Of a DNA stretch of 64,000 nt, positions 2-23,625 are shown piece after piece (positions within the stretch are counted from its first letter, which is position 1; each line of letters starts with the position of its first letter). The stretch covers positions 946-64,945 of the forward strand of contig JBBSHM010000002.1 in assembly GCA_038253125.1 (NCBI GenBank), given 5' to 3'. This DNA is from Acidimicrobiales bacterium. GTDB lineage: Bacteria; Actinomycetota; Acidimicrobiia; Acidimicrobiales; JAUJNH01. The notes below the pieces were generated by a model. That model saw nothing but the letters and a program-made list of their open reading frames with translations, was not told the DNA's origin and searched no databases. The position numbers and the translations under genes are program-made.

Positions 2-742
2 GAGGCCGACGCCCTGTACGACAAGGCGGCCGAGCTGATGGCCAAGCACCGGATCGACGCCGCCCTGCTCGAGGCGAGCCGGGCGCCGACCGACCGCAGC
101 CCGGTGGTGGAGCGGCCGGTGGACCTCGGTTCCGGGCAGTACGTACGGGCCCGCCTGCAGCTCATCCACCACGTGGCTGAGAACCACGGCTGCCGGCTCC
201 TCACCCACACCACCCGTGACGGGCGGGTGGCAACCGTGGTGGGCGTGGCCGACGACTCCGACCGGGTTGAGATGCTCTACACGAGCCTTCTGCTGCAGGC
301 CACCCGGCTGGCCGGTGCCGCCTGGTCGGACCGGGCCGCCGGCCCAACGGGTGCGCAGGTCCGGCGCCCCCCGGCCACCAGCAGCCAGGTGGCCTGGAAG
401 CGAGAGTTCCTGTTCGGCTTCGGGGTCCGGGTGGGCGAGCGCCTGGCCGAGCTGGCCCAGATGGCCGCCCACCCGCCGGGCGGTGAGGCCGACGGCAGCA
501 CGGTGGCCCTGGTGCTGGCCGACCGGGCTCAACGGGTTGACGCCTGGGTAGACCGGGCTCATCCCCGGTTGCGCTCGCTGGCCCCCGCCGCCGGGTTCAC
601 CGGCCACGGCGGCTTGGCTGCCGGACGGTCCTCCGCCGACTCCGCCGACCTGGGCAGCCGACAGGTCGAGGCGGCCCGCCGGGCGCTCTCATCCAGCTCT
701 GCTGGGCCGCTCGGGGCCTGGACCTCCCGCTCGGACCACTAG
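2..742 (+). CDS. DUF2786 domain protein (5' end outside window)
   Basis: Frame open from window edge: EADALYDKAAELMAKHRID matches the DUF2786 'A..KA..LM.++.I' pattern; later 'VG..D..RVEMLYTSLL.QA' and 'F..GF..RV.ERL' fit actinobacterial DUF2786 proteins. Confidence 0.8.
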   Translation, partial: EADALYDKAAELMAKHRIDAALLEASRAPTDRSPVVERPVDLGSGQYVRARLQLIHHVAENHGCRLLTHTTRDGRVATVVGVADDSDRVEMLYTSLLLQATRLAGAAWSDRAAGPTGAQVRRPPATSSQVAWKREFLFGFGVRVGERLAELAQMAAHPPGGEADGSTVALVLADRAQRVDAWVDRAHPRLRSLAPAAGFTGHGGLAAGRSSADSADLGSRQVEAARRALSSSSAGPLGAWTSRSDH

Positions 743-746
743 GCGG

Positions 747-1286
747 TTGAAGCTGATCGCCGTGGGCGGCCGTGACGGGGAGCGTCAGCGGGTCTACGAC
801 GCCGAGGACGCCGCCTTCCTCGAGACCTCCTACGCCGAGGGGCTGGGGGAGCGGGGCTGCCGGTGGCTGATCGAGCGCCTGACGGCCACGCCCTGGTGGT
901 CCGAGGCGGCGGGCGGTGTCGTGCCTGCGCTTCGGGCGGCCCGGGCCGACAGCGCCCGCTCGGCCGCGGTGGTGGCCGCCGGCAGGGCCGAGGTGCGCAT
1001 CGGTCCGGGCATGGACCAGGCGCACGTCCTCTCCCACGAACTGGCCCACCTACTGGCCGGAGCCGATGCCGGCCATGGCCCGTGGTTCCGAGCCGCCCAC
1101 CTGGACCTCGCCACCATTGCCCTCGGCACCCACGGCGCCGGCCGCCTGGCCGGCGCCTACGGCCGGGCCGGCCTGGCCATCGAGGATCGGCGATGGCCGC
1201 CACCCTCCGACCACGGTTCGGGCGGCCTGCTCGCCATCTGGGAAGCCCTCGTGGCGCTGGAGTCGTTCGGCCGCTGCGCAACCTGA
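747..1286 (+). CDS. HEXXH metallohydrolase (TIGR04338-like)
   Basis: HELAH and HGPWF motifs; directly follows DUF2786, its usual partner; TTG start is uncertain. Confidence 0.7.
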   Translation: MKLIAVGGRDGERQRVYDAEDAAFLETSYAEGLGERGCRWLIERLTATPWWSEAAGGVVPALRAARADSARSAAVVAAGRAEVRIGPGMDQAHVLSHELAHLLAGADAGHGPWFRAAHLDLATIALGTHGAGRLAGAYGRAGLAIEDRRWPPPSDHGSGGLLAIWEALVALESFGRCAT

Positions 1287-1519
1287 GGGCCGAAGCCTCG
1301 AAGAGGCGTCTTGCCCGCGCAACCCCTCTTCTGGTCCGCACACCGTGCCGACCGATGGCCTGGAGGGTTGCGGAGTGGCACTCCGATTGGCGTAAAAGGC
1401 CGGCTCAGCCGGTAGAGTTCATCCGGCGGAGGATGCCGAGGACCTGTCCCCCCATGGGTCGATGGGCTTCGGAGCTTCCCCCACCACAACGCAGCATCGG
1501 AGGAAGAGCACTGGCCGAG

Positions 1520-4500
1520 GTGGGCACCCGCGCCGACGACCCCCAGTGGGTCGCCATGGTCGAGGACGAGGCGGCAGATGAGGCCGCGCCCGGCGACCTG
1601 GCCGTCCTGGAGGGCGACCGGGTCCGGTGGCTGCGCGTGGCCCAGGCCATGCTGCGCGACACCGAGGACGCGATCGAGGACGTGGCCGAGCTGGCCGATC
1701 CCGTCGTACGGGCGCAGGCCATCGCCGACCTCAGCGACGAATCGGCCCGCCTCGCCGCCGTCGTCACCCGCCTCGCCGTCGCCGCCGGCCTCGGCACCCC
1801 GTGGCAGGCCGCACCGCCGCCCTCAACTGGGGACGGCACCGGCAGCCGCAGCCGCAGCCCGTACGAGGTGGCCGTGGCGGCGCCCACCGGGCCGCCCCGC
1901 CTTCAGGGCTCGTGGGTCGACGGCGGGCTGGTGCTGTGGGGCGGCGGTGCGGGCGTCCGGCCGCTGCCGGCGGCCGAGGTGGTGGCTTTGGGCGGCTCGA
2001 TCGGCGCCGACACCAGCGGCTGGACCCGCCGCAAGCCGGTCATCGTCCCTGGGGGTGACCAGGCTGACGCCTGGGCCGTGCCCCTGGAACGGGTCCTCGG
2101 CTGGCTGGTGGCGGTGGCCACCACCCCGCCGGGCGAGGTCGTGGCGCCGAGCCTGCGGTGGCTCGGCGAGGTGGCGGCCTGGGCCGTCGAGCTGGTGGCC
2201 ACCGGCCGGGCCGTGCCCATCATGCGGCGCTCGACGGGGGGCGGTTCCACCTCGCGGTGTCGGGTGCGATGGAGCCCGGCCCTGGTCGACAAGGACAGGC
2301 TGGACGCGGCGGCCGCCCGCCGGCCGGGTGCGGTGGCCATCACCGCCTCGGCCGAGGATGCGGCCGTCACCGCCCGGTCGGTCCTCGGCGCCGTGGTCGA
2401 CACCCTCTTCCGCCTCGCCGCCGCTCGCGCCCCCAGCATCCCCTCGCCACCGGACGTGACCACGGCGGCCGAGGTCGGCGAGTCGATCCTGGCCGGCCTG
2501 GCCGGCGAGCGGTTCGAGGCCGCCGAGCGGGTCGCCGGCATGGTCGAGCACCGCCTGAACCGGTGGGCCCGGGCCGTGACCGCCGAGGTCGCCCCGGCAC
2601 TGATCGTGCGGCTGGCCGAGCCCGATTCCGAGGGCGTGTGGCTGCTGTCGGTCCACGTGCCCGGTATCGGCGCTGGCGGCGGCGAGATGCCGGTCGAGGT
2701 GGCCATGGGCACGGCGAGGGGCGAGGAGCGGCGGGCCGTCGAGGTGGCCTACGGCCGGCTCGAGCGGCTGGTGCCAGTCATCTCCCGGCCCGGCCGGGCC
2801 CGACGGGGCGAGGTCGCCCTGTCCGACGCCGAGGCGTGGGAGCTGCTCACCGAGGTGGGGCCGGCCCTCGAGGCGGCCGGGTTCTCGGTGCAGGTGCCCC
2901 GGCTGCTGCGCCGTAGCCCCTCGCCCGTGCTGCGCCTGTTCACCAAGGAGGGCGGCTCAACCCACGTCGGGGCCAACCAGCTGGTCGACGTGCGCTGGTC
3001 GGTGCTGATCGGCGACCTCGAGCTGGACGCCGCTGACATCGCCCGGCTCGCCGCCCAGGCCACTCCGCTCGTGCGAACCGGCGGCCGGTGGGTGGCGCTG
3101 GAGCGGGCCGACCTGGTCGAGGCGGCCGCCGCCCTGGCCGAGCGTTCCCGGGTCAACCAGATGACGGGCGGGGCGGTGCTGCGCGAGGCGCTGGGGCTCG
3201 AGGGCTCCGGCCCGTCCGGCGGCATCAGGGTCGACGGCCAGGGGTGGGCCGCCGACCTCCTGCGTGAGGCCGGCTCCTTCCCGCCCCCGCCCGCCGATCC
3301 GCCCCAGTCCTTCCGCGGCGTCCTGCGCGCCTACCAGGCCGAGGCGCTCGGATGGCTCACGTTCCTCGACCGGGCCGGTCTCGGCGGCTGCCTGGCCCTC
3401 GACATGGGCCTCGGCAAGACAGCCACGGTGCTGGCCCGCATTGCCTCGACGTCGGATCAGGGGCCGACCCTGGCCGTGGTGCCACAGGCCGTGCTCAGCA
3501 ACTGGGCGGCTGAATCGAATCGTTTCACCCCTAGTCTCCGGGTGGCCGTCCACCACGGCTCGGCCCGAAGCGACGACCTGGTCAGGATGGCGGCCAGCTA
3601 CGACCTTGTGGTCACCACCTTCGGCACGGCGGTGCGCGACATCGACAGCCTGGCCGCGGTGAAGTGGGACCGGGTCGTCATCGACGAGGCCCAGAACATC
3701 AAGAACCCGGCGTCGGAGACGGCCAAGAGCCTGCGCCGCCTCCCGGCCCGGTCGCGGCTGGCGCTCACGGGCACGCCGGTCGAGAACGGACTCGGCGACC
3801 TCTGGGCCATCCTGGACTACACCAATCCCGGCCTGGTCGGCGCCCGCGACGCCTTTGTCGGGGGCCTGTCGGGCAGGACGGTCGCCGGCCAGGGCGCCGA
3901 GGCGGCGCTGCGGGCGCTGAACGGCCTCCTGGTCTTCCGACGAACCAAGTCCGAGCCTGAGATCGGCGCCGAGCTGCCCGACAAGATCGACGAGCTCGAG
4001 CGCTGCGCCATGACCACCGAGCAGATCGGGCTGTACCAGGCGGTGCTGGACAAGCTGGTGGCCGACCCTCCGACCGGTGACACCAAGGTGCGCAACGGCC
4101 GGGTGCTGGCCGCCATCACCGCCCTGAAGCAGATCTGCGACCACCCGGCCGCTTACACCCATGACGACCGGCCCCTGGCCGGCCGCTCCGGCAAGCTCAC
4201 CCGCCTGGAGCAGGTGGCCGACGCCGTGCGGGCCGCCGGCGAGAAGCTGCTCGTCTTCACCCACTTCGCCTCGTGGGGCGAGCGGCTGGCCGGGCACCTG
4301 GCCGAGCGCTACGGCGAGCCGGTCGGCTGCTACCACGGCGGGCTGGCCCGGGGGGCCCGGGACAAGCTGATCGAGGACTGGAAGGCCCGTCCGGGCGGCG
4401 GGATCCTGGTGCTGTCGCTGAAGGCCGGCGGCACCGGTCTCAACCTCACCGAGGCGAGCCACGTGGTGCTGTACGACCGGTGGTGGAACCCGGCGGTCGA

Positions 4501-4759
4501 GGACCAGGCCCGGGACCGGGCATGGCGCATCGGCCAGGAGCGCACGGTCGTCTCGCGCCGCTTCGTGTGCCCCGGCACCATTGACGAGCGGGTCGAGGAG
4601 GTGGTGGCCGGCAAGCGTCGCATAGCCGATCTCGTGCTGCCGGCCTCGTCATCGCTGGCCGACCTGTCGTCCGAGCAGCTGCGGGTCGCCCTCGGCCTGC
4701 GCCCCGACCAGCTGGTGGCCGACGACGACGGCTCGACCGACGAGGAGGCCGCGGCGTGA
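1520..4759 (+). CDS. SNF2-family helicase/ATPase (HelZ-like)
   Basis: DMGLGKT, DEAQNIKN, LTGTPVEN, SLKAGGTGLNL, DRWWNPAVEDQARDRAWRIGQ motifs; start estimated near GGAGGA at ~1499, not at 863. Confidence 0.92.
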   Translation: MGTRADDPQWVAMVEDEAADEAAPGDLAVLEGDRVRWLRVAQAMLRDTEDAIEDVAELADPVVRAQAIADLSDESARLAAVVTRLAVAAGLGTPWQAAPPPSTGDGTGSRSRSPYEVAVAAPTGPPRLQGSWVDGGLVLWGGGAGVRPLPAAEVVALGGSIGADTSGWTRRKPVIVPGGDQADAWAVPLERVLGWLVAVATTPPGEVVAPSLRWLGEVAAWAVELVATGRAVPIMRRSTGGGSTSRCRVRWSPALVDKDRLDAAAARRPGAVAITASAEDAAVTARSVLGAVVDTLFRLAAARAPSIPSPPDVTTAAEVGESILAGLAGERFEAAERVAGMVEHRLNRWARAVTAEVAPALIVRLAEPDSEGVWLLSVHVPGIGAGGGEMPVEVAMGTARGEERRAVEVAYGRLERLVPVISRPGRARRGEVALSDAEAWELLTEVGPALEAAGFSVQVPRLLRRSPSPVLRLFTKEGGSTHVGANQLVDVRWSVLIGDLELDAADIARLAAQATPLVRTGGRWVALERADLVEAAAALAERSRVNQMTGGAVLREALGLEGSGPSGGIRVDGQGWAADLLREAGSFPPPPADPPQSFRGVLRAYQAEALGWLTFLDRAGLGGCLALDMGLGKTATVLARIASTSDQGPTLAVVPQAVLSNWAAESNRFTPSLRVAVHHGSARSDDLVRMAASYDLVVTTFGTAVRDIDSLAAVKWDRVVIDEAQNIKNPASETAKSLRRLPARSRLALTGTPVENGLGDLWAILDYTNPGLVGARDAFVGGLSGRTVAGQGAEAALRALNGLLVFRRTKSEPEIGAELPDKIDELERCAMTTEQIGLYQAVLDKLVADPPTGDTKVRNGRVLAAITALKQICDHPAAYTHDDRPLAGRSGKLTRLEQVADAVRAAGEKLLVFTHFASWGERLAGHLAERYGEPVGCYHGGLARGARDKLIEDWKARPGGGILVLSLKAGGTGLNLTEASHVVLYDRWWNPAVEDQARDRAWRIGQERTVVSRRFVCPGTIDERVEEVVAGKRRIADLVLPASSSLADLSSEQLRVALGLRPDQLVADDDGSTDEEAAA

Positions 4760-4787
4760 GATCACCGACGAGAGGGTCGGGCCGCTC

Positions 4788-5054
4788 ATGAGCGGCAGGC
4801 GCAGGAAGAAGCCGCCGACGGTGGCGGTGGCCGACGTCGCCCGCTTCTGGGGCACCGATGTGGACGAGCCCATCGCCCCCTTTATCCGGCCGTCGACGGA
4901 CCCAACCGCCCTCCTGCGCTCCCTCGGCCCCATCCCGCTGACCGTCCAGGAGAAGCTGGCCGCCGCCCAGCTGCACGCCGTCTACGAGAAGGCCACCCAG
5001 GTGGCTACCGCGGTGGCTGCTGCCGCCAACCTCATCGAGCCTGAGGCACCGTAG
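4788..5054 (+). CDS. Small hypothetical protein
   Basis: 88-aa ORF with normal composition, 28 bp downstream of the SNF2 stop. Confidence 0.6.
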   Translation: MSGRRRKKPPTVAVADVARFWGTDVDEPIAPFIRPSTDPTALLRSLGPIPLTVQEKLAAAQLHAVYEKATQVATAVAAAANLIEPEAP

Positions 5055-5110
5055 GGCCGAGGCTGTCGACGCCGGTCACCTGCAAAGCCGTGGCTGTTGC
5101 GAAAGCCCGC

Positions 5111-5158
5111 TTCTGTCGGGACAAGCCATCCGCTGAGCGACATCTACTCCCGACAGAA
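5111..5158. repeat. 48-bp palindromic intergenic repeat, copy 1
   Basis: TTCTGTCGGGA...TCCCGACAGAA stem; same-length copies at 24911 and 55524. Confidence 0.85.
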
Positions 5159-5173
5159 CCGGTGGGGGAGGGT

Positions 5174-5356
5174 TTATGCGGCGGGGCCCGGGTGCTTCTC
5201 GCCCCGGGCCTCTTGAACGTCGTCCTCGGCCGCTTCGACCTCGCCCTGGTCCGGCTTGTGCCCAAGGTGCTCCTCGGCACGACCTTCGGCTTCGACCTCG
5301 CGATCCTCGGTGATGTTGCCGAGCACCTTCTTGATATGTCCTGTGGTCTCACCCAT
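5174..5356 (-). CDS. CsbD-like small stress protein
   Basis: 60 aa starting MGETTGHIKKVLGNITEDREVEAEG, resembling the CsbD 'G.+K+.+G.+T.D..+..EG' signature; it is the last 60 codons of the spurious 5174..6946 ORF. Confidence 0.65.
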   Translation of the reverse strand: MGETTGHIKKVLGNITEDREVEAEGRAEEHLGHKPDQGEVEAAEDDVQEARGEKHPGPAA

Positions 5357-5428
5357 TGGCTCTCGACTACCCGGCCGGCGCCGATGCGGAACCTCGATCT
5401 GTGCCCCGTGTTCGGCAAGGATGCCGTC

Positions 5429-7060
5429 GTGCTGCTGTGCGAAGTCGTCGCCACCTCGGCCGCCGTCACGGCCACCACCAGCCGCTCGGCCAAGGTGGCG
5501 GCGCTGGCCGACCTCCTGCGCCGCCTCGCCACGGACGAGGTCGAGGTGGTGGTCGCCGCCCTGGCCGGTGAGGCGAGGCAGGGCCGCATCGGCATCGGGT
5601 GGGCCACCGTCGCCGCTCTCGACGTGCCCGCCGCCGCCTCCGCCTCGCTCAGCATCACCGACGTCGACCGGGCTCTGGATGTTCTGGCCGCTTCGGTCGG
5701 TTCTGGCTCCCAGGCCCTGAGGTCCGCCCGCCTGGGAGCACTGCTGCGGGCGGCGACGGCCGACGAGCAGACGTTCCTGCGCCGCCTGCTGCTGGGCGAG
5801 CTGCGCCAGGGCGCCCTGGTCGGCGTGGTGACCGACGCCGTGGCCCGGGCGGCCGGCGTGCCCCTGGCCCAGGTGCGGCGGGCCGCCATGCTCGCCGGCG
5901 ACCTGCCGTCGGTGGCCGCCATCGCGTTGTCCGAGGGCGCCGCCGGCCTCGCCGGCGTCGGCCTGTCGGTCGGACGCTTCATCCAGCCGATGCTGGCCGC
6001 GCCGGGGGCGGCGGTGGCCGACGCCCTCCCCGCCCACGGCGGCCCGGCGTCGGTCGAGCAGAAGCTGGACGGCGCCAGGATTCAGGCCCACCGCACGGGC
6101 GACATCGTCCGACTGTTCACCCGCAACGGCAACGACGTCACCGCCCGCCTCGGAGCGGTCGCCGAGCTGGTCCGTGCCCTCCCCTGCACGTCGGTGGTGC
6201 TCGACGGCGAGGTCATCGGCCTGGACCAGGACGAGCGCCCGGAGCGCTTCCAGGACACGATGTCCCGCTTCGGCCGTCAGGCCGGCCACGCCGAGACCGC
6301 CCTGTCCTCCCCGCTCGGTGGGGCCGCTCGGGCCCTGTCCTCCCCGCTCGGTGGGGCCGCTCGGGCCCTGTCCTCCCCGCTCGGTGGGGCCGCTCGGGCC
6401 CTGACGGTGAGGTTCTTCGACTGCATCCACCTGGACGGGACCGACCTGGTCGACGAGGCACTCAGCACCCGGGCCGGGTCGCTGGCGCAGGTGGCCGAAA
6501 GGTGGCAGGTGCCGAAGATCATCACCGCCGACGTGGCCGAGTCCGAGGTGTTCCTGGCGGCCTCGCTGGCCGCCGGCCACGAGGGCGTGGTGGTGAAGGA
6601 CCTCGCCTCGACCTACGAGGCCGGCCGGCGGGGCGGGGCGTGGCGCAAGGTGAAGCCCGTCCGCACCCTCGACCTGGTGGTCCTCGCCGTCGAGTGGGGC
6701 AGCGGGCGCCGGTGGGGATGGCTGACGAACCTCCACCTCGGCGCCCGCGACCCGCAAGGTGGGCCGCCGATCATGGTGGGCAAGACGTTCAAGGGTCTGA
6801 CCGACGAGCTGCTGCGCTGGCAGACCGCCGCCCTGCTCGAGCGGGAGGCACCGGGTCCGAGCGGCCCCGCAGAGCGGGAGGCACCGGGCCATGTGGTCCA
6901 CGTCCGGCCCGAGCTGGTCGTCGAGATCGCCGTCGACGGGGTGCAACGCTCGACCCGATACCCGGGCGGGGTGGCCCTGCGCTTCGCCCGGGTCCGCCGC
7001 TACCGCGACGACAAAAGCCCCGCCGACGCCGACACCATCGACGCCGTACGCGCCCTTTAG
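5429..7060 (+). CDS. ligB: ATP-dependent DNA ligase (LigB-type)
   Basis: EQKLDGARIQ (KxDG), EGVVVK, YEAGRRG, WRKVK, GKTFKGLTD, LRFAR motifs; start estimated at GTG 5429. Confidence 0.92.
   Translation: MLLCEVVATSAAVTATTSRSAKVAALADLLRRLATDEVEVVVAALAGEARQGRIGIGWATVAALDVPAAASASLSITDVDRALDVLAASVGSGSQALRSARLGALLRAATADEQTFLRRLLLGELRQGALVGVVTDAVARAAGVPLAQVRRAAMLAGDLPSVAAIALSEGAAGLAGVGLSVGRFIQPMLAAPGAAVADALPAHGGPASVEQKLDGARIQAHRTGDIVRLFTRNGNDVTARLGAVAELVRALPCTSVVLDGEVIGLDQDERPERFQDTMSRFGRQAGHAETALSSPLGGAARALSSPLGGAARALSSPLGGAARALTVRFFDCIHLDGTDLVDEALSTRAGSLAQVAERWQVPKIITADVAESEVFLAASLAAGHEGVVVKDLASTYEAGRRGGAWRKVKPVRTLDLVVLAVEWGSGRRWGWLTNLHLGARDPQGGPPIMVGKTFKGLTDELLRWQTAALLEREAPGPSGPAEREAPGHVVHVRPELVVEIAVDGVQRSTRYPGGVALRFARVRRYRDDKSPADADTIDAVRAL
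6299..6403. repeat. 33-bp tandem repeat x3 within ligB (ALSSPLGGAAR)
   Basis: GCCCTGTCCTCCCCGCTCGGTGGGGCCGCTCGG repeated three times exactly, in frame. Confidence 0.95.
6839..6889. repeat. Second, inverted copy of the 33-bp element within ligB
   Basis: GAGCGGGAGGCACCGGG recurs at 33-bp spacing (6839, 6872); its reverse complement resembles the 6299 unit. Confidence 0.75.
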
Positions 7061-7114
7061 CCGCCGTCACTCGGTCGCTTTGCTCCCTCCGTTCCGGCGG
7101 GTTCGGCCGCCTGC
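7058..7114. repeat. REP-like element, left arm of inverted pair
   Basis: Reverse complement aligns with 8393..8464; begins at the ligB TAG stop. Confidence 0.75.
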
Positions 7115-7330
7115 GGGGCAGAATCCGGAGTGTCTGCTGGCGAGCTTCGGGTCCACGGGTGCTTGTGCACCTCGACGAAGCTGTACGGCGAGCTTCGCTT
7201 TTGGGCGGCGATCTTGGCCTTACGGCGGCGGGCTTGGTCTACGGCGGCGCCACCTTGGGTGCCGCCTGGGCGGCAGTGACGACGGCGCGCGCCCGGCCGT
7301 GAGGCCGAGGCGCCCGTAGGCTCCGCCGGA

Positions 7331-8275: not shown

Positions 8276-8392
8276 CCTCAAAGCCGATCTTCGCCCGCCG
8301 ATCGAGGGCTTTTGGGGAGTTCGAGGGGGCGCAGCTTGCGGAGCCCCCTCGTCAGGCGGCGAAAGGCGAGCTTGCTCGCCCGCCGTTGAAGG

Positions 8393-8494
8393 GCAGGCGG
8401 CCGAAGGCCGACCAGAAGACCCGCCCGAACGGAGCGAGCGCAGCGAGCGAGTGAGCGGCGGCTGAGAGCGCAGCGAGCGAGTGAGTGGCGGCTA
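8393..8494. repeat. REP-like element, right arm of inverted pair (partly duplicated)
   Basis: GAGCGCAGCGAGCGAGTGAG(C/T)GGCGGCT occurs twice; inverted homolog of 7058..7114. Confidence 0.75.
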
Positions 8495-11766: not shown

Positions 11767-11787
11767 GGACGTGCCGGGCCCCCCCGG

Positions 11788-15285: not shown

Positions 15286-15392
15286 TGGGCTACGTCGCCG
15301 CCGGCTACCTCGTGACCCTCGCAGGCCTGGGCACCTACGCAGCCTGGCTCGTCCGCCGGGCCAAGCAGCTCAACCGCGAGCGGCTCCAGTGA
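15285..15392 (+). CDS. ccmD: CcmD-like small membrane protein (35 aa)
   Basis: MGYVAAGYLVTLAGLGTYAAWLVRRAK: TM helix plus basic tail between ccmC and ccmE, with overlapping start/stop codons. Confidence 0.75.
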   Translation: MGYVAAGYLVTLAGLGTYAAWLVRRAKQLNRERLQ

Positions 15393-15892
15393 GCGGATTG
15401 AGCACAGCTCCGACGCTGGACGACGAGGACCTGCCCCCCGTCGTCACCACCCGGCGACCCCGCCAGGCCAAACCGGCACGCATCATCGTGTCGTCGGTCC
15501 TTGCTCTCGGGGCCATCGGCTTCCTGGTGAGCAAGGGCCTGGGAAGCGCCACCGTGTACTTCAAGACCGCGGATGAGGCCGTGGCCCAGCGCCGCCAGCT
15601 CGGCACGCACCGCTTCCGCATCCAGGGCTCGGTGGAGCCGGGAACCATCCGCCAGGACCAGGGCCGGCTGCTGTTCACCATTCTCGGCGAGCAGGGCGCC
15701 GAGGTGCCGGTGGTCCACACCGGAGGCCAGCCGACCGGGCTGTTCAAGGACTCGATACCGGTCGTGCTCGAAGGGCACTGGACCGGCTCGGGGCCGGCCT
15801 ACGCCTCGGACAAGATCATCGTGAAGCACTCCGAGACCTACCGGGCCGCCAACCCCGGCCGGGTGGCCGACTACAAGCCGACGAGCTCGTGA
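15389..15892 (+). CDS. ccmE: Heme chaperone
   Basis: TM anchor; 'P.GLFKDSIPVVLEG'; KHSETY is the HxxxY heme-binding motif. Confidence 0.9.
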   Translation: MSGLSTAPTLDDEDLPPVVTTRRPRQAKPARIIVSSVLALGAIGFLVSKGLGSATVYFKTADEAVAQRRQLGTHRFRIQGSVEPGTIRQDQGRLLFTILGEQGAEVPVVHTGGQPTGLFKDSIPVVLEGHWTGSGPAYASDKIIVKHSETYRAANPGRVADYKPTSS

Positions 15893-17949
15893 ACGCCGTC
15901 CTCGGCTCGATGGGCGTGCTGCTCGGCCTGGCCGGCGCCATCGCCGGCGTGGCCGCCCTGGCCACCGGGCTCGTCACCAGGAAGGAGTCGCTGCTGCGCA
16001 GCGGGACCGTCTACGCCTTGATGGTGCTGGCCGGTGCCGTAACGGCGTTCGCGGCCATGGAGCGGGCCCTGCTCACCCACGACTTCTCCCTGAAGTACGT
16101 GGCCGACAACCACAGCCGGTCCACGCCCACCATGTACACCATCGCCTCGCTGTGGAGCCGGCTCGAAGGCTCGATCCTGCTGTGGGCGCTGATCCTGGCC
16201 GGCTACGGGGCGGCCATGGCGTGGCGCTTCCGGGCCCGCCGGGGCGACCCGGTGGTGGCGTGGGCCACGCTGGTCGTGCTGTCGGTGTCGATCTTCTTCT
16301 TCGCCCTGCTGGCGGGCCCGGCCGACCCGTTCGGCACGGTGCGGCCGGTGCCGCTCAACGGGCCGGGCCCCAACCCGCTGCTGCAGAACCACCCGCTGAT
16401 GCTGGTCCACCCGCCGATCCTGTACCTCGGCTACGTCGGCTTCACCGTGCCGTTCGCCTTTGCCATCGCCGCCCTGGCCACCGGACGCCTGGGGGAGGGC
16501 TGGCTGGTCGAGACCCGGCGCTGGACCTTGCTGGCCTGGGGGTGCCTGACCATCGGCATCGCCATGGGCGCCTGGTGGAGCTATGAGGTGCTGGGCTGGG
16601 GCGGCTTCTGGGCGTGGGACCCGGTGGAGAACGCGTCGTTCCTGCCGTGGCTCACCGCCACCGCCTACCTCCACTCGGTGATGGTGCAGGAGCGCAGGGG
16701 GATGTTGCGGGTCTGGAACCTGTCGCTGCTGTGCGCCACGTTCGCCCTCACCATCCTCGGCACGTTCCTGACCCGCTCGGGCGTACTCGAGAGCGTCCAC
16801 GCCTTCTCGAACAGCAGCATCGGCCACTGGATCCTGGCCTTCTTCGCCGTGATCGTCGTCGTGGTGATCGGCCTCATCGGCTGGCGGGGCGACCGCCTGC
16901 GCTCACCCGGCACCATCGACAGCCCGGTGAGCCGCGAGGGCGCCTTCCTGATCAACAACCTGCTGTTCGCCGCCTTTGCCTTCGTCGTGCTGCTCGGCAC
17001 CGTCTTCCCCCTCGTCACCGAGGCGCTGAAGGGCGACCGCATCACGGTGGGCCGGCCCTACTTCGACCGGATGTCGGCGCCAATCGCCGTGTCGCTGCTG
17101 TTCCTCATGGCCGTGGCGCCGGTGCTGCCGTGGCGCAAGGCGTCGGCCGAGACCCTGCGCACCCGGATGCAGTGGCCGCTCACCTTCGCCGTGGCCGTCA
17201 CCGTGGTGCTGGCCGCCTCCGGCCTGCGGGGCTGGCTGGCCCTCCTGGCCTTCTTCCTGGGTGGCCTGGGCGGCGGCTCCGCCGTGCGCCAGCTGATCCT
17301 GGCCACCCGACGCAACGGCTGGCGGGGCCTGGTCGGCCGCACCAACGGCGGGATGGTCGTGCACATCGGCGTCGTTCTGATCGCCGTGGCCTTCGCAGCC
17401 AGCGCCGCCTACGCCTCGCGGGCCGAGGTGAGCCTGACCGAGGGCCAGAGCACCACCGTCGGCGGCCACAAGGTCACCTACCTCGGCACCGACACCCGGC
17501 GCTTCGCCGCCAGCAACCCAAAGGCGGCCGTGGTCACCGCCCGCCTGCGGGTCGACGACGGGCGGGTGTACGTGCCGGCCATCACCCAGTATCGCACCCA
17601 GACCCAGGGCATCGGCACCCCGTCGGTGCGCACCGGCCTGCTCGAGGACGTGTACACCACCCTGGTCCAGGCGCCCTCCGAGCCGGGCGGCCCGGCCACC
17701 ATCGGCGTGCTCGTGCACCCGCTCACCGTCTGGCTGTGGATCGGAGCCGGCCTGATGGGGCTCGGCACGATGCTCGCCGCCTTCCGGGTCGGCCGGCCCA
17801 TCCCCCCGGTCACCCCCCGCCCACCCCCGCCGACGGGCCGCCGCCAGCCCGAGCGCCCCCGCGCTGGCGGCCCCAAGCGCCAGCTGGACCGGGTCCCGGT
17901 GGGCGCCCGCGACCGCACGCTCACCACCCCTGGCAAAGCCACCCCGTGA
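15889..17949 (+). CDS. ccmF: Heme lyase CcmF/NrfE family
   Basis: EGSILLW, HPPILYLG, WGGFWAWDPVEN, TRSG..SVHAF motifs. Confidence 0.95.
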   Translation: MNAVLGSMGVLLGLAGAIAGVAALATGLVTRKESLLRSGTVYALMVLAGAVTAFAAMERALLTHDFSLKYVADNHSRSTPTMYTIASLWSRLEGSILLWALILAGYGAAMAWRFRARRGDPVVAWATLVVLSVSIFFFALLAGPADPFGTVRPVPLNGPGPNPLLQNHPLMLVHPPILYLGYVGFTVPFAFAIAALATGRLGEGWLVETRRWTLLAWGCLTIGIAMGAWWSYEVLGWGGFWAWDPVENASFLPWLTATAYLHSVMVQERRGMLRVWNLSLLCATFALTILGTFLTRSGVLESVHAFSNSSIGHWILAFFAVIVVVVIGLIGWRGDRLRSPGTIDSPVSREGAFLINNLLFAAFAFVVLLGTVFPLVTEALKGDRITVGRPYFDRMSAPIAVSLLFLMAVAPVLPWRKASAETLRTRMQWPLTFAVAVTVVLAASGLRGWLALLAFFLGGLGGGSAVRQLILATRRNGWRGLVGRTNGGMVVHIGVVLIAVAFAASAAYASRAEVSLTEGQSTTVGGHKVTYLGTDTRRFAASNPKAAVVTARLRVDDGRVYVPAITQYRTQTQGIGTPSVRTGLLEDVYTTLVQAPSEPGGPATIGVLVHPLTVWLWIGAGLMGLGTMLAAFRVGRPIPPVTPRPPPPTGRRQPERPRAGGPKRQLDRVPVGARDRTLTTPGKATP

Positions 17950-18551
17950 GCCAGGTCACCGAGGTGAGGGGAGCGGGCGAGCCGGCTGGCGCCCCCGACG
18001 CCCCACGGGGAAAGCGGAGCGTGCTCTTCGCGGTGATCCTGGCGGCCGTGGTGCTCGGCGCCTTTGTCGTGCTGCTCGTCGGGGCCAAGGAGCCGGACAG
18101 CCGCAGCACCGTCGTCGGCAAGCCGGCTCCGTCGATCGACCGGGCCTTCGGCACGCTGAAGGGCGGCGACCGGGTGAGCCTGGCCGACTTCCGGGGCCGC
18201 TACGTGGTCCTCAACTTCTTCGCCTCCTGGTGCACTCCGTGCGTCACCGAGCACCCCGAGCTGGTCCGCTTCCAGAAGCAGCACGCCGCCCTGGGCGACG
18301 CCACCGTGGTGCAGGTGCTGTACAGCGACAAGCCGGCGGCGGCCCGGCAGTTCTTCGCCGAGCGGGGCGACGGCGGCTGGCCGGTCCTGATCGACGACGA
18401 GGGTCGCTTCGCCCTGGACTACGGCGTGACCGGACCGCCCACCTCGTTCCTGATCGACCCGCAGGGCTTCGTGCTGGCCAGTGTGAAGAGCGCCATCGAC
18501 CAGGCCGGGCTCGAGGACCTCCTCAACCGGGCGAAGCAGGGTCGGCCCTAG
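17946..18551 (+). CDS. ccmG: Membrane-anchored thioredoxin (CcmG/TlpA family)
   Basis: NFFASWCTPC and YGVTGPP; N-terminal TM; GTGA overlap with ccmF. Confidence 0.85.
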   Translation: MSQVTEVRGAGEPAGAPDAPRGKRSVLFAVILAAVVLGAFVVLLVGAKEPDSRSTVVGKPAPSIDRAFGTLKGGDRVSLADFRGRYVVLNFFASWCTPCVTEHPELVRFQKQHAALGDATVVQVLYSDKPAAARQFFAERGDGGWPVLIDDEGRFALDYGVTGPPTSFLIDPQGFVLASVKSAIDQAGLEDLLNRAKQGRP

Positions 18552-19013
18552 GTGCGGCGCTGGCTGCCCCTGGCCCTTCTCGGCGCCCTGTTGGTCTTCG
18601 CCCTGGCCCTCGCCGCCCGGCCCCAGGTGGACCACAGCGAGGCGGCCCGGGTCACCCGCATCGCCAGCGAGGTGCGCTGCCCCACCTGCCGGGGACAGTC
18701 GGCGGCCGAGTCCGACGCCGAGGCGGCCACCGCCGTCAAGACCTTCATCCGTGAGCGGCTCGGCCAGGGGGCCAGCGACGCCCAGGTCAAGGCCGAGCTG
18801 GCTGACCGCTTCGGCACCAGCATCCTGCTGCGGCCACCGGCGTCGGGGGTGAGCGGGCTGGTCTGGGCGCTTCCGGTAGCCGCCTTCATCCTGGCCGCCG
18901 GCGGGCTGGCCTACGCCTTTTGGCGGTGGCGGTCGCGGGGGCTCCGCCAGGCCAGCGACGAGGACGTCGTGCTGGTGGCGCGAGCGAGGCGGACGTGGGA
19001 ACGCACGGGCTGA
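18552..19013 (+). CDS. ccmH: Cytochrome c biogenesis protein CcmH
   Basis: VRCPTCRGQS..ES motif; 'LLRPP' followed by a TM helix. Confidence 0.9.
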   Translation: MRRWLPLALLGALLVFALALAARPQVDHSEAARVTRIASEVRCPTCRGQSAAESDAEAATAVKTFIRERLGQGASDAQVKAELADRFGTSILLRPPASGVSGLVWALPVAAFILAAGGLAYAFWRWRSRGLRQASDEDVVLVARARRTWERTG

Positions 19014-20023
19014 GGGTCGAGCTTGAGGAGGAGCGCGACTTCCTTCTCCGCTCGCTCGACGACCTGGAGGCCGAACGGGCCGGGGGCGACCTGGAGGAAG
19101 ACGACTACCGCAGCCTCCAGGGCGACTACACCGCCCGGGCGGCGACAGTCCTGCGCCGCCTGCAGCACCTCGAGGAGCCGGCCGAGGCGGCGCCGGCCGG
19201 GGGCAAGGCCCCGTGCGATGGGCGAGTCGATGGCCCCGCCGCTGGCCCAGCCGATCACAGCGGGAGCCCAGACGCTCACAGCGGGAGCCCAGACGGTGGC
19301 CATGGGAGCCCAGACGACGGGCATGGGAACCCCCCCGTGGAAACCGGTCACGTCGACGCGGGGGCGTCACCGGCTCGGTCCACCTCGGGCCGCCGCCGTA
19401 CACGGTGGCCGCTGGTGCTCAGCGTCGTGGCCACCATCGCGCTGGCTGCCGGCTCGGGCTACCTGGTCACCCGGTCCTCGGGCGAGCGGCGGCCGGACCA
19501 GGGGGTCTCGGGAGGGCCCGACAGCTCGCCCAGCGCCCTGCTGCGGGAGGCCATCACCCTCGACAACGGCGGCAAGCTGCTGGACGCGGCCAAGCTGTAC
19601 GACGCCGTGCTGGCCAAGGAGCCGGAGAACGTGATCGCCCTCACCCGGCGCGGCTGGCTCGTCGGGCTGTCAGGCCGCCAGGCCGGCAACGTCGAGCTGC
19701 TGCAGGCCGGCCTCGGCTACCTCGACCGTGCTGTCAAGATCGACCCCAGCTACGCCGACGCCCACGCCTACCGGGGCTTGGTGATCGGGGCCTTGGGCCG
19801 GCCGGGCGACGCCGGCTGTGAGTTCCGGCTGTGGCTCGCCGTAGCCCCGCCCGACGACGAGCGGCGGCCGGCCATCGAGGGGGTGCTCGACGAGGCCACC
19901 ACCCAGGCCGGCGGCAAGCTGCCCGAGTGCCCCAAGCCTCCCCTTCCGGGTCCCGTCGCCGTCCCGCCCGTTCCCCCGCCTGCCCCCCCGACGGCGGCGA
20001 GCCCGTCGACCACGATCCCCTAA
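18995..20023 (+). CDS. CcmI-like TPR protein
   Basis: 'ERDFLLRSLDDLE.E...GDL..DDY' N-terminal region, TM helix, TPR-like helices; last gene of the ccm operon; start estimated. Confidence 0.75.
   Translation: MGTHGLRVELEEERDFLLRSLDDLEAERAGGDLEEDDYRSLQGDYTARAATVLRRLQHLEEPAEAAPAGGKAPCDGRVDGPAAGPADHSGSPDAHSGSPDGGHGSPDDGHGNPPVETGHVDAGASPARSTSGRRRTRWPLVLSVVATIALAAGSGYLVTRSSGERRPDQGVSGGPDSSPSALLREAITLDNGGKLLDAAKLYDAVLAKEPENVIALTRRGWLVGLSGRQAGNVELLQAGLGYLDRAVKIDPSYADAHAYRGLVIGALGRPGDAGCEFRLWLAVAPPDDERRPAIEGVLDEATTQAGGKLPECPKPPLPGPVAVPPVPPPAPPTAASPSTTIP
19255..19338. repeat. 21-bp imperfect tandem repeat x4 (His/Gly/Ser/Pro/Asp heptapeptide)
   Basis: GGGAGCCCAGACG core at 21-bp spacing. Confidence 0.85.
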
Positions 20024-20079
20024 TGGGCCCGAGGTCGAGCCGACGTGTCGATCCCGCCGGGCGCGGGTAGTCGCCCAGG

Positions 20080-20634
20080 ATGGAGACAACCACGGTGGAT
20101 GCTGGCGACCACGGGCCGGCCCGGGTGGTCGACTCGGTTCGCAGCCGCCTCGAGCACGAGGAGGAGGAGCACGCCCACGGGACCGAGAGGCCCATCGGCG
20201 GCTACATGGTGCTGCTCGGCTCATACGCCCTGATGGTGCTCAGCCTCGGGATCGTCGTCCGCCGCCGCCGGCACATGCCCGTTCGGCCGGCCCCCGCCGA
20301 CCTCGCCCTCGTCGCCGTGGCCACCCACAAGATCTCGCGGATGCTGTCGAAGGACACTGTGCTGGCGGCGGTGAGGATGCCCTTCACCCGCTTCGAGGAG
20401 GCGGCGGGGGAGGGAGAGGTGAACGAGTCGGTCCGGGGGCACGGTCTGCGTCACGCCATCGGCGAGCTGCTCACCTGCCCCTTCTGCCTGGCCCAGTGGG
20501 TGGCCACCGGGTTCACGTTCGGCCTGCTTCTGGCTCCCCGGGCCACCCGGCAGGTGGCCGCGGTCTTCTGCGCGGTAACGGCCAGCGACTACCTGCAGCT
20601 GGCTTACGCCGCCGCCGAGAAGACCGCCGAATGA
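20080..20634 (+). CDS. DUF1360-family membrane protein
   Basis: 'ATHKISR..KD....R.PF' and 'GELLTCPFCLAQW' motifs. Confidence 0.8.
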   Translation: METTTVDAGDHGPARVVDSVRSRLEHEEEEHAHGTERPIGGYMVLLGSYALMVLSLGIVVRRRRHMPVRPAPADLALVAVATHKISRMLSKDTVLAAVRMPFTRFEEAAGEGEVNESVRGHGLRHAIGELLTCPFCLAQWVATGFTFGLLLAPRATRQVAAVFCAVTASDYLQLAYAAAEKTAE

Positions 20635-20698
20635 CCCCGTCCCTGCTACAAGGGAACCTTGTGGTCTGACCCTTCTCCTTTTTAGGATCCATGGTGGG

Positions 20699-21373
20699 TC
20701 ACGGGCCGGCGGTGACCAGGGCGATGGCGAGGCCGTCGTGGCCCTTGCTGCCCACGGTCTGGATGGCGGTGGCGCTCACCCGCGGCGCGGACGCCAGCAG
20801 CTGGTGGAGCCGGCGGGTGCCTTGAATGTCGGGGTCTTCGCTGTCGGCGTCGATGACGGCGCCCCGGCGGACGACGTTGTCGACGATGATCACGGTCCCG
20901 GGGCGCGACAGCTGCAGCGCCCAGGTGAAGTAGTCGGGGTTGTTGGCCTTGTCGGCGTCGATGAAGATGAGGTCGAACGGCCCGCTTCCCTCGGATGCGA
21001 GCTGCGGAAGCGTGTCAAGCGCCCGACCCAGGCGCACCTCGACGATCCCCGCCAGACCGGCGTTGGCGATGTTGGAGGTGGCGACCTCGGCGTGGCCGGG
21101 ATCGGCCTCGAGCGTGACGAGGCGGCCGCCGCCAGGCAGCGCCCGGGCCAGCCAGATGGTGCTGTAGCCCCCCAGCGTGCCGATCTCCAGGATGGACATG
21201 GCCCCGTGGATCTGCGCCAGCAGCGCCAGGAGCTTCCCCTGGTTGGGCGCCACCTGGATCTGCGGCAGGCCGGCGGCGACGCTGGCCGCCAGCGCCGAAT
21301 CCAGCGCCGGGTCGGGCGGCACGAGCAGGTCTGTGATGTAGCGGTCCACGGCCGTCCACAGCTCTTCGGTCAC
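20699..21373 (-). CDS. O-methyltransferase (class I SAM-dependent)
   Basis: LEIGTLGGYST, FIDADK, VDNVVR, KGHDG; start GTG 21373. Confidence 0.92.
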   Translation of the reverse strand: MTEELWTAVDRYITDLLVPPDPALDSALAASVAAGLPQIQVAPNQGKLLALLAQIHGAMSILEIGTLGGYSTIWLARALPGGGRLVTLEADPGHAEVATSNIANAGLAGIVEVRLGRALDTLPQLASEGSGPFDLIFIDADKANNPDYFTWALQLSRPGTVIIVDNVVRRGAVIDADSEDPDIQGTRRLHQLLASAPRVSATAIQTVGSKGHDGLAIALVTAGP

Positions 21374-21407
21374 CGTTCCTCGATCCACTCGGGTCTGCAC
21401 ATGCTGG

Positions 21408-22535
21408 TCATCGGTCGACCGGTCCGCGGCGGAGAGCCTGGAGCGACTCCAGGACCTGGGGCAGGGCGGCGAGAAAGGTGGAGACGTCCTCGTCGCTGGT
21501 GCTCCAGCCCACGCTGGCCCGTAGGCTGCGCTCGGCGTCCGCGCCCATGGCCTCGAGCACCGGCGACGGCTCGAGCAGCTCGGACGAGCACGACGAGCCC
21601 GAGTGGACGGCGATGCCAGCCTGGTCGAGGCCGAGAAGGACCGGCTCGGCCTCGATTCCTTCCAGGCCGAAGCAGGCGATGTGGGGCAGCCGGGCCTCAG
21701 GGGTGAAGCGGCGGACGCCGGCAACCGCCGCCGCACCGCCGAGGAGGCGCTCGGTCAGGGCGTGCTGGCGGGCTCCCTCTGCGGCCGGGTCGAGCTGCTC
21801 GAGGGCGGCGGCGAAGCCAACGGCGCCGGCCACGTTCTCAAGCCCCGCCCTACGGGCCCGCTCCTGGGCGCCACCGACCAGCAGCGGATCGAGGCGAAGG
21901 CCCCGCCGTACGAGCAGGGCTCCGACGCCCCGGGGACCGCCCAGCTTGTGGGCGCTGACCGACACCAGGTCGGCACCGGTGGCGGCGAAGTCGATCCGGA
22001 CCCGACCGGCGGCCTGGGCGGCGTCGACGTGCACCAGAGCCCCGGCCCGGCGGGCGGCGGCCACCACCTCGGCCACGGGCTGGAGGGTGCCCACCTCGTG
22101 GTTACCCCATTGCACGTTGACCAGCGCCACCCCGTCCAGGACGACGTCATCGATCGACAGGCGGCCGGTGTCATCGACCGGCGGCTCCACCACGCCACCA
22201 CCGGCCCGGGCCGCCCACTCGCGCACGGAGGAGTGCTCGACGGCGGCGGCTACCACAGCGCCCGCCGGGTTTCGGCGGATGGCGCCCCAAGTGCCCATGG
22301 CCACGGCCTCGGTGGCCCCGCTCGTGAACACCACCTCCCGGCTAGCCCGGCATCCGAGGGCGGCGGCTATCCGCTCCCGGGCGTCCTCCAGCGCAGCCCG
22401 GGCCATCCGCCCCTCGGTGTGCACCCGCCCGGGGTCGGCGGCGCTGAGCCACGGTGCCATGGCCTCGGCCACCGCAGGCAGGAGGGGCGAGGTGGAGGCG
22501 TGATCCAGGTAATGACGGGCCGCGCTCACTGGCAT
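21408..22535 (-). CDS. Cysteine desulfurase (IscS/NifS family)
   Basis: YLDHASTS, FTSGATE, NHEVG, HVDAAQ, SAHKLGGP, SGSSCSS. Confidence 0.92.
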   Translation of the reverse strand: MPVSAARHYLDHASTSPLLPAVAEAMAPWLSAADPGRVHTEGRMARAALEDARERIAAALGCRASREVVFTSGATEAVAMGTWGAIRRNPAGAVVAAAVEHSSVREWAARAGGGVVEPPVDDTGRLSIDDVVLDGVALVNVQWGNHEVGTLQPVAEVVAAARRAGALVHVDAAQAAGRVRIDFAATGADLVSVSAHKLGGPRGVGALLVRRGLRLDPLLVGGAQERARRAGLENVAGAVGFAAALEQLDPAAEGARQHALTERLLGGAAAVAGVRRFTPEARLPHIACFGLEGIEAEPVLLGLDQAGIAVHSGSSCSSELLEPSPVLEAMGADAERSLRASVGWSTSDEDVSTFLAALPQVLESLQALRRGPVDR

Positions 22536-22603
22536 GCGGGCACCCTCGATCGGCTGCCGATCGTCACGCGTGTCCCATGGCCCCGGTAGAAACCCGCCCC
22601 GTA

Positions 22604-22740
22604 CGCCCGGGCACTAACGGTTGCGGAGACGTCACCTTCTGCCCGGGCGCAACCCACCCACCTTCTGCCCCGGCAGTACCGGTTGCGGGGACGCCACGTG
22701 GTGCCCGGGCACAACCGGCCCACCTTCTGCCCGGGCAGAA
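22604..22740. repeat. Array of TGCCCGGGCA-like palindromes (62-bp period)
   Basis: 10-mers at 22604, 22640, 22666, 22702, 22728 (spacing 36/26/36/26); CACCTTCTGCCC occurs three times. Confidence 0.8.
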
Positions 22741-22812
22741 CCGGTCGCCGCCACCTACGCCGGGCCCGGGCCGTCTGACGTGGTGACGGCGAGGCGTCGG
22801 CCAGCTCAGAAG

Positions 22813-23625
22813 TCACACCAGGGTGATGCAGGTGGCGTCGCCGCGGGCCCTGCTGGTCTCCTGCTCGGGCGAGCGGTCGACGCCCAGGCCGGCCAGCATG
22901 CCCCGCACCATGCCGCGGTCCACTGCGCACAGCACGGGGTGCTGTGACGCCGTGGTGCCGAACGGGCAGTTGTCGGCGATCACGGCGATGAGCCCGTCTC
23001 TGGTCTCGGCGTGGGCGGCGAAGCCGTGGGCGGTCAGGGCGTCGGCCACGGCGTGGAGTGCGGCCCTGACGTCACGCACAGCCTCGGCGCCCGGCTCTGC
23101 AGCCACCTCGGCCCCGTCTTCCCCGCTCTGGGGGGCCGCTCGGGTCCCGGCCATGGAGGCGGCGAGAGCTCGGCCGTAGTCCTCGCCTACCTGCTCGGCC
23201 ATGGCCTCGGCCTGCTCGCGGGGCAGCAGGCCGAGCGCTCTGCCGAGGAGGGTGATGATGAGGTCGTCGCGGCGGGCGGGGAAGCCGGTGGTGCCCGCCG
23301 ACGCCGCCGCCGCCACGTCGACCGGCACGCGGTAGCGCTTGGCGGGCCGGCCGGCGGCCCGGCCCTCGGTGCGGTCGACGAACACCTCGAGGTAGGTGGA
23401 GGTGGTCAGCTTGTCCAGGTGGTGGCGGGCCACGTTCGGGTGCAGGCCCAGGTGCTCGGCGGCCTCGGCCGCCGTCACCCCGGGGTCGCCGACGTCGCGG
23501 GCGAGGAGCCAGGCCGCCCGCCGGGTGGGGTCACCAAAGGCGTTGGTGATGGCGGCGACGTCAGCCCCGAAGGCCCGGTGCTCGTCGAGCTCGGCGCCGG
23601 CGGCGGCCGGCTGGGTACTGGCCAC
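22813..23625 (-). CDS. HTH metalloregulator (SufR-like/ArsR family)
   Basis: GDPTRR, 'LGLHPNVARHHLDKL', GRPAKRY; C-terminal NCPF...LC...TC ligand-like cysteines. Confidence 0.82.
   Translation of the reverse strand: MASTQPAAAGAELDEHRAFGADVAAITNAFGDPTRRAAWLLARDVGDPGVTAAEAAEHLGLHPNVARHHLDKLTTSTYLEVFVDRTEGRAAGRPAKRYRVPVDVAAAASAGTTGFPARRDDLIITLLGRALGLLPREQAEAMAEQVGEDYGRALAASMAGTRAAPQSGEDGAEVAAEPGAEAVRDVRAALHAVADALTAHGFAAHAETRDGLIAVIADNCPFGTTASQHPVLCAVDRGMVRGMLAGLGVDRSPEQETSRARGDATCITLV
23111..23148. repeat. Copy of the 33-bp coding repeat inside the SufR-like gene
   Basis: GCCCCGTCTTCCCCGCTCTGGGGGGCCGCTCGG matches the ligB unit at 29 of 33 positions. Confidence 0.8.

Follow-up and report, generated by a model that had tools for sequence, protein, structure and literature searches.

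The window analysed in this study is a 64,000-nucleotide stretch of the genome of an Acidimicrobiales bacterium (GCA_038253125.1), and within it we describe a 33-bp repeat that lies inside protein-coding genes. The source genome, designated G000, comprises 2.93 Mb in 216 contigs with 71.8% GC, and the window corresponds to G000:C2:946-64945. Four copies of the repeat were found in the window, in a DUF7168-containing gene, in the ATP-dependent DNA ligase gene ligB, which carries two of them, and in a gene for a helix-turn-helix (HTH) regulator (Table 1); the next-best match to the unit is 22/33. These copies had been noticed in an original prediction made from the letters alone, and its observations were reproduced: the triplication in ligB proved to be a perfect array, its inverted relative further along the gene is present, the copy in the regulator gene matches the unit at 29/33 positions (23111-23143), and the copy at 693-732 is identical at 33/40 positions to the reverse complement of the one starting at 6839. 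The gene labels fared less evenly. Pfam supported ligB, but family scans confirmed neither the SufR-like label of the regulator gene nor the DUF2786 label; the window parts of these two genes matched MetOD1 and DUF7168 in Pfam, respectively, and the SufR-like protein had no NCBIfam match at 1e-8.

Table 1. Host genes and copies of the 33-bp repeat in the window
Feature	Position	Strand	Remarks
DUF7168-containing host gene	2..742	+	5' end outside the window; Pfam DUF7168
1.4-unit insertion (45 nt, SSSAGPLGAWTSRSD) in the DUF7168-containing gene, directly ahead of its stop	692..736	-	
ligB, ATP-dependent DNA ligase	5423..7060	+	Pfam; start codon not fixed, open frame from 5090
ligB site 1, perfect 3.2-copy 33-bp array, ALSSPLGGAAR x3	6299..6403	-	Tandem Repeats Finder score 210
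ligB site 2, 1.5-unit copy, core 6853-6878, read GPSGPAEREAP	6839..6889	+	27/33 to the unit
HTH regulator host gene, between cysteine desulfurase-like and Mrp-like genes	22813..23640	-	
57-nt insertion in the HTH regulator gene, intact core 23122-23147 and decayed second unit	23092..23148	-	

The copies were compared with the orthologous positions of four congeners (G001, G002, G003 and G004), which together with G000 are five genomes of one genus; the comparisons with G002 cover 2.29 Mb out of about 2.9 Mb. The insertion in the DUF7168-containing gene is oriented against transcription and is absent in all four congeners. The array at ligB site 1, likewise against transcription, lies in a loop of the nucleotidyltransferase domain; the site is empty in G001 and G004, and a decayed 38-amino-acid insert occupies the same place in G002 and G003. 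Site 2, which reads with transcription, is empty in all four congeners and represents a net gain of 27 nt with an identical spacer on both sides, and the two orientations of the repeat lie 450 nt apart within ligB. The insertion in the regulator gene, with transcription, is empty in G001 and G004 and shorter (9-11 amino acids) in G002 and G003. Among the five genomes, the ligB site 2 and DUF7168 tail insertions were found in G000 alone. The suggestion that the peptides are lineage-specific was thus borne out by congener orthologues without them, while the proposed size of the added loops, 11 residues, was not: the net gains are 33 amino acids or more at ligB site 1, 9 at site 2, 19 at the SufR-like site and 15 at the DUF7168 tail. 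Loop placement is based on sequence alignment: the inserts of LigB and of topoisomerase I (TopA) fall in alignment gaps relative to the solved structures 9df9_A and 6pcm_A.

A contig of soil run X4 (15-fold depth) shares the ligB site 2 insert and carries nine more element-like bases on its left. In addition, the summed contig depth over 6142-6408 in runs X1-X4 exceeded that of the flanks by a factor of several to tens, and this high depth over the array shows that many other organisms in these soil metagenomes carry the element.

Unit, host genes and range of the repeat

The 33-bp repeat family is confirmed as real and genome-wide. In G000 the unit gave 75 matches at 25/33 or better compared with 0.6 per shuffled query (20 shuffles), the excess over shuffled sequence that had been called for, and an iterated position weight matrix converged on 91 units compared with 0 when the genome was reversed as a control. 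Allowing up to 3 mismatches to the core pattern identified 52 loci, among which 28 are single, 12 double, 9 triple and 3 quadruple, and the period is 33, head-to-tail, at 37/39 array junctions. Each unit consists of an almost invariant 26-nt core and a variable 7-nt spacer. On the usual, mRNA-like strand it reads GGGCCCGAGCGGCCC-NN-C-R-GAGCGGG; the 7-nt spacer behind it is rich in purines and ends in C-W, and after the spacer comes either another unit or a worn GGGCCC. Constancy reaches 93-100% at 23 positions of the core, in part from how the search was built; the two N positions, the R and the spacer differ among loci and are common to the units of one array. The core has neither a start nor a stop codon of its own. 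That all six frames are open holds for the triplicated ligB unit but not as a general rule, since one antisense frame is interrupted by a stop in 62 (32%) of the 192 distinct units. A 5-bp GC hairpin is possible in the first 15 core bases and is the commonest fold. However, no complementary covariation was found among 193 units, the unit folded no better than shuffles (z-scores -1.8 to +0.7), and no Rfam family matched either ligB copy; the absent covariation and the absent excess stability speak against a conserved RNA fold.

Genes were predicted in G000 with a self-trained caller, which assigned 89% of the genome as coding. The proposed count of coding against intergenic copies placed 42 of the 52 loci in predicted coding sequence (the caller missed the SufR-like gene, whose locus would make 43), and 30 of these lie at least 75 nt from either gene end; in G002, 44/52 loci are coding. 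As foreseen, several frames are used, and the coding copies of G000 occupy all six (8, 8 and 17 with transcription; 3, 2 and 4 against). The host genes, whose names are our reading of family matches, encode topoisomerase I (topA), leucyl-tRNA synthetase (leuS), GMP synthase (guaA), SMC, FtsK, GlnE, NadA, QueA, LipB, RecC, DinB, ImuA', ImuB, the DNA polymerase III alpha family, RuvB, Lon and S-adenosylhomocysteine hydrolase. Host genes and others had the same rate of 1.47 indels per 1000 amino acids (59 vs 1058 pairs), and host genes were not more diverged, which gives no support to gene-level tolerance as the basis of host choice. One element also lies in a gene for a DrmD-like SNF2 helicase (below the NCBIfam cut-off) at G000:C81:5972-9508.

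The pattern was present in all five genomes of the genus and in none of 2 other genera of the family. Across the order, it occurred in 17/401 genomes from 7 genera, with marked differences between genera: g61 carries it in 5/5 genomes and its sister g132 in 0/6, and g123 in 3/3 compared with 0/2 in g33. Outside the order, 401 genomes of the phylum yielded one same-class genome with 6 copies and one 2-mismatch hit. A GTDB-wide exact scan returned at least 110 stretches; the 28 assemblies behind 80 of these comprise 27 titled at the Acidimicrobiia or Actinomycetota level and one Burkholderiales bin, which, judging from flanking proteins 65-72% identical to those of G000 (locus L172), is probably misbinned. 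In the other genera a larger share of the copies lies at the ends of genes and close to start codons, and periods of 30 and 32 also occur.

We also searched for a mobiliser. The original prediction had pointed to a REP-associated tyrosine transposase (RAYT) or IS200-type enzyme, REP standing for repetitive extragenic palindrome, but no match to the corresponding Y1 family (PF01797) was found in any of the five genus genomes, which are 67-95% complete. Reverse transcriptase was present in 8/16 carriers and 6/20 non-carriers and does not track the element. The sole reverse transcriptase match of G000 (G000:C152:2848-4065, PF00078, E 4.9e-36) lies on a 4-kb contig, with no link to the element found. 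Beyond shared orthologous sites, no gene family recurred beside the element in the 700-nt flanks of 110 loci, and none of Y1, reverse transcriptase, RecC, ImuA' and IS110 tracks the 33-bp repeat.

Other repeats were also seen in G000. A palindrome of about 50-60 bp with 12-bp arms (TTCTGTCGGGAG ... CTCCCGACAGAA) resembles REPs and MITEs (miniature transposable elements with inverted repeats) and occurs in the window at 5111-5158 (directly upstream of ligB), 24911-24958 and 55524-55571; 62 of its 79 half-site matches genome-wide are intergenic, which is the opposite of the 33-bp repeat, and one copy abuts a 33-bp array at G000:C49:16185. GAGC-rich tandem repeats with 30-, 15- and 20-bp periods lie at 8436-8493, 33181-33237 and 7186-7249 and are possibly sister families of the 33-bp repeat. 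A perfect 12-bp unit is repeated 6.6 times at 36861-36939, and a 62-bp unit 2.3 times at 22605-22745, between the cysteine desulfurase-like and SufR-like genes.

Insertion sites, orientation and hotspots

When the 52 loci of G000 were sought in G002, 19 were empty, 5 were filled and 28 had no two-flank orthologue; the reverse comparison of 52 G002 loci in G000 gave 27, 4 and 21, and 36 loci of G001, G003 and G004 checked in G000 gave 17, 2 and 17, the empty class taking in a few decayed copies throughout. Since sites filled in one congener are empty at the orthologous position in another, in both directions, the repeat must have inserted de novo and then expanded in tandem, and the earlier proposal of a short element that enters unrelated genes and expands there was upheld. 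The length difference was a multiple of 3 in 53/63 empty-site comparisons and exactly 33n in 16/63. Among 172 in-frame indels of at least 7 amino acids in 1117 orthologue pairs of two congeners, 27 carry a strict copy of the repeat (up to 42 with decayed ones), compared with under 1% in a random-segment control. The copy number of arrays varies by whole units between congeners. These comparisons show de novo insertion, in-frame retention and tandem copy-number change. Trees resolved G002+G003 only, and sites shared with G000 may thus be either ancestral or repeated hits. At the start of a pyrH-like amino-acid-kinase gene (L041/L042/L060/L006), different variants are present in G002 and G004 and the site is empty in G000, the result of either a repeated hit or a loss.

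The empty sites resemble GGGCCC, the first six bases of the core: the hexamers matched it at 3.75/6 positions, with a background of 2.16 (20 net-33n comparisons at 18 distinct sites), and 0/5000 resamplings were as high. GGGCCC is not over-represented in the genome (observed/expected 0.92), which ruled out an over-represented target like HIP1. The last five nucleotides upstream of the core were only 0.30-0.55 identical to the empty allele, compared with 0.65-0.80 further out, suggesting that host bases were replaced rather than duplicated. In pairs from G003 and G002 (94% identical), one site gained 39 nt cleanly, another gained about 38 and lost 5, and a third gained 33 and lost 9. No exact target duplication, as had been anticipated in clean form, and no terminal inverted repeats were found at the junctions examined. 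The similarity of upstream flank to spacer was slightly above shuffles (0.38 vs 0.32 at 66 single-unit loci). Both ends of the element tend to C-W-G, which empty sites often lack. The identical spacers flanking ligB site 2, together with the nine extra bases in run X4, point to a tandem donor.

The repeat follows the direction of transcription, with ratios of with to against of 38:11 in G000, 39:12 in G002, 31:3 in G001, G003 and G004, and 55:10 among 73 loci of other Acidimicrobiia, at least one of which duplicates G002; stop codons alone predict 52:48. Thus, both orientations occur, as originally claimed, but they are not used equally, about 80% of copies lying along transcription. The bias persists at intergenic loci whose neighbouring genes are co-directional (37:5). 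When 100 loci were modelled jointly, gene direction was significant (p 1.5e-7), whereas a replichore proxy, the noisy, skew-based G/C content at fourfold sites, added nothing (p 0.18). A smaller subset appeared confounded, with 20/25 coding loci on the G-rich strand of contigs with clear skew. A codon-usage expectation-maximisation procedure for replichores was discarded because it drifted to an axis of AT-rich genes.

Insertions are concentrated in imuA'-imuB, where at least 6 distinct sites were found in about 2.9 kb over 4 genomes, compared with 1 locus per 56 kb otherwise; the imuA'-imuB cassette of G065 has none of these element sites. The hotspot lies at G000:C3:6646-9573 and L391-L393, and one imuB site is filled in 4/4 genus genomes examined, with a RARAA-type peptide kept. 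Operons with a LexA-type box contained 6 of 104 loci compared with 0.92 expected; the box scan recovered recA, lexA, radA, ruvC and imuA'. In a hand tally in which shared sites were merged only in part, hosts of DNA metabolism numbered 21/113 compared with 3/80 random genes (p 0.002). Sense-strand bias, a GGGCCC-like target, ragged junctions and hotspots in SOS-type genes are observed properties of this repeat.

Mechanism, rival explanations and relation to known repeats

We lean, by a modest preference over all else taken together, towards a very small non-coding mobile repeat, lying mostly in frame in genes, that is copied by host repair and not moved by a transposase. The process that we infer would start from a broken or nicked 3' end within a transcribed gene. 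This end would anneal by a few bases of microhomology to a tandem copy already present, at the GGGCCC end of that copy, in DNA or a transcript; about one unit would be copied from the tandem donor, followed by imprecise rejoining. Selection would then retain gains in multiples of three in loops and termini, and slippage or unequal exchange would afterwards add or remove whole units. The core is probably conserved through recognition by a putative host or trans-acting protein, and the inserted peptides are probably tolerated passengers. A nicked template strand as the primer together with mRNA-like polarity of the donor would account for both the sense bias and the SOS hotspots. A bolder form of this reading, which we put forward only tentatively and consider doubtful, is a 'selfish repair template' that needs no transposase and enters genes during their transcription and repair, with the nicked template strand primed on the unit's own transcript or a single-stranded copy.

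Several observations weigh against copying by host repair. ImuA' is present in 16/17 carriers and 18/20 non-carriers, and RecC in 10/17 and 6/20; the tested repair genes do not explain the patchy range, and IS110 genes, found in 14/17 carriers and 11/20 non-carriers, may still be involved. The sense bias could stem from selection after insertion. Unrelated inserts of G065 sit at two of the same imuB positions, suggesting that those loops are tolerant anyway. The LexA-box count depends on two hand corrections (imuB was added and a GC-rich false box removed), only 6/104 loci lie in such operons, and G002 alone gives p 0.09. The excess of DNA-metabolism hosts is post hoc and amounted to 9/71 in an independent set (p 0.07). 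Moreover, no insertion was found in a near-identical strain pair, the closest being about 94% identical, and the soil-run contigs gave no empty allele; the pairs compared are thus not recent, and the ragged junctions may partly represent later decay.

Decay of the ends is also assumed by the explanation that the repeat is a non-autonomous transposon of REP-like or MITE-like type, for which a RAYT, an IS110-type recombinase or an unrecognised nuclease would act in trans. A core that hardly varies, next to positions that vary freely, suggests that a protein recognises it, the core begins with a 5-bp GC hairpin, the range is patchy across families, the modal gain is 33 nt with weak flank-spacer similarity (0.38 vs 0.32), and IS110 occurs in 14/17 carriers. 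Against these stand the absence of PF01797 from 5/5 genus genomes, the lack of a GTAG or CGTC tag, terminal inverted repeats or an exact duplication, the lack of a recurrent neighbouring gene family in the 700-nt flanks of 110 loci, and arrays that are head-to-tail only, and we consider such a transposon unlikely. We hold it improbable, too, that the repeat is a selected mRNA or DNA signal, as has been suggested for mycobacterial interspersed repetitive units, one that would serve ribosome binding, coupling or protein binding where genes adjoin and whose coding copies are spill-over. The persistence of the sense bias between co-directional genes (37 vs 5) and the purine run at the end of the core agree with this idea, as do the 75 loci of other Acidimicrobiia, of which 55 lie at gene ends or between genes and 22 have an in-frame start codon at most 20 nt downstream; but 30/52 G000 loci lie 75 nt or more from the gene ends and a start follows within 20 nt at only 4, conservation of the sites among congeners is absent, their distances from starts are scattered, and the folding results (no covariation in 193 units, z-scores -1.8 to +0.7, no Rfam family on the ligB copies) lend no support to an RNA structure.

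The subset with 20/25 coding loci on the G-rich strand would suit a replication-polarised, Chi-like recombination signal, oriented by the fork and promoting its own ectopic copying, as would the presence of RecC in 9/10 genomes of genera g1 and g61 and its absence from 6/6 of the sister g132. We give this idea little credence, because the joint model draws its signal from gene direction and not from skew, the carriers of g123, g174 and g227 have no RecC (0/6), and both orientations lie 450 nt apart in ligB. Independent local duplications, convergent GC-rich low-complexity loops like those of Borgs, chance or an assembly artefact are scarcely credible. A genome of 72% GC, local array changes by whole units and contigs that break at the array could be cited for them, but one core is common to all loci and to distant families, the controls gave 0-0.6 matches, the empty orthologues contain no seed unit, the same ligB insert was recovered from an independent soil run, and Borg repeats are, in the part of the source bearing on this, nearly all unique to a locus (PMC9879509). 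Chance and artefact were ruled out by the shuffled and reversed controls and by the independent soil run.

With respect to known systems, the Rickettsia palindromic element (RPE) named in the original prediction is a fair precedent in kind but not in size (105-146 bp), and intragenic REPs, cyanobacterial small dispersed repeats (SDRs) and mycobacterial interspersed repetitive units forming variable number tandem repeats (MIRU-VNTRs) are nearer in size. Intragenic REPs tagged with GTAG or CGTC are described, in the relevant passage of Di Nocera et al. (2013, PMC3733652), as GC-rich, hairpin-type sequences of 20-40 bp with tens of copies, sometimes in tandem; the same passage reports, without explanation, a bias to dnaE2, uvrD, recBCD, ligase and pseudouridine synthases, mentions CGTC REPs without a dedicated transposase, and does not include Actinomycetota among the phyla it lists. 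The 33-bp repeat is likewise short, GC-rich and in part in frame in genes, and the bias to repair and replication genes recurs in it; unlike REPs, however, it has no terminal GTAG/CGTC tag and no RAYT, and whereas most REPs lie outside genes and many form inverted dimers, it is 81% coding and strictly head-to-tail. MITEs differ in having terminal inverted repeats and a fixed target duplication. RPEs, according to the sections concerned of PMC10969869 and PMC3184786, lie in frame in unrelated housekeeping genes in about 44 copies, and their mobiliser is unknown. Our repeat shares this in-frame insertion, but an RPE is a palindrome of about 105-150 bp with one conserved peptide, whereas here 33 bp are read in six frames and expand in tandem.

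The SDRs of Nostocaceae are portrayed, in the portions drawn on here, as dispersed sequences of about 20-30 bp with variable tandem copies and apparently transposase-free mobility (PMC2884548, PMC5861425). Our 26-nt core falls in this size range and its insertion is evident from empty sites; the phylum and sequence are different (SDRs were compared by description), the target is not an over-represented palindrome (GGGCCC observed/expected 0.92), and no covarying structure was found. Elhai and colleagues reportedly showed in 2008 that one SDR family inserts at a palindromic site and proposed an RNA-mediated route, and compensatory changes are said to support the SDR fold. MIRU-VNTRs are given in the pertinent part of PMC3184786 as intercistronic units of 40-100 bp, co-transcribed, with their own open reading frame (ORF) overlapping the neighbours and 4-nt direct repeats. 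They too are actinobacterial, with 40-50 loci, variable tandem number, empty and filled sites and a frequent position at gene junctions, but the 33-bp repeat has no start or stop of its own and is mostly intragenic in this genus, with more junction copies elsewhere. Borg tandem repeats, in the part of Schoelmerich et al. (2023, PMC9879509) that concerns them, lie within ORFs, are divisible by three and stop-free, and encode disorder-prone peptides; their units are A-rich and nearly all unique to a locus, whereas one GC-rich core is present here at 52 loci. In its way of working the 33-bp repeat thus resembles RPEs, SDRs, MIRU-VNTRs and the REPs found within genes, but it lacks a defining feature of each that it could be tested against. 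No published description of the motif, the peptide or an intragenic repeat in Acidimicrobiia was found in a search that left most subscription journals outside.

Gene-invading short repeats are, as a kind, already known, and the hosts here are metagenome-assembled. For the question of how repeats shorter than 40 bp can spread with no transposase, the many empty and filled pairs, the target preference, the strand rule and the hotspot cassette of this genus let the competing mechanisms predict distinct outcomes. In practice, such a repeat breaks assemblies, inflates read depth and is a possible VNTR marker. Its contribution to changes in proteins, essential enzymes included, can moreover be quantified. 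If the 'selfish repair template' were true, the unit would land in sense orientation and favour SOS genes, roughly one in five new loops of at least 7 amino acids in the proteome would derive from it, and it would offer a mechanism for the bias to repair genes that intragenic REPs show in other phyla.

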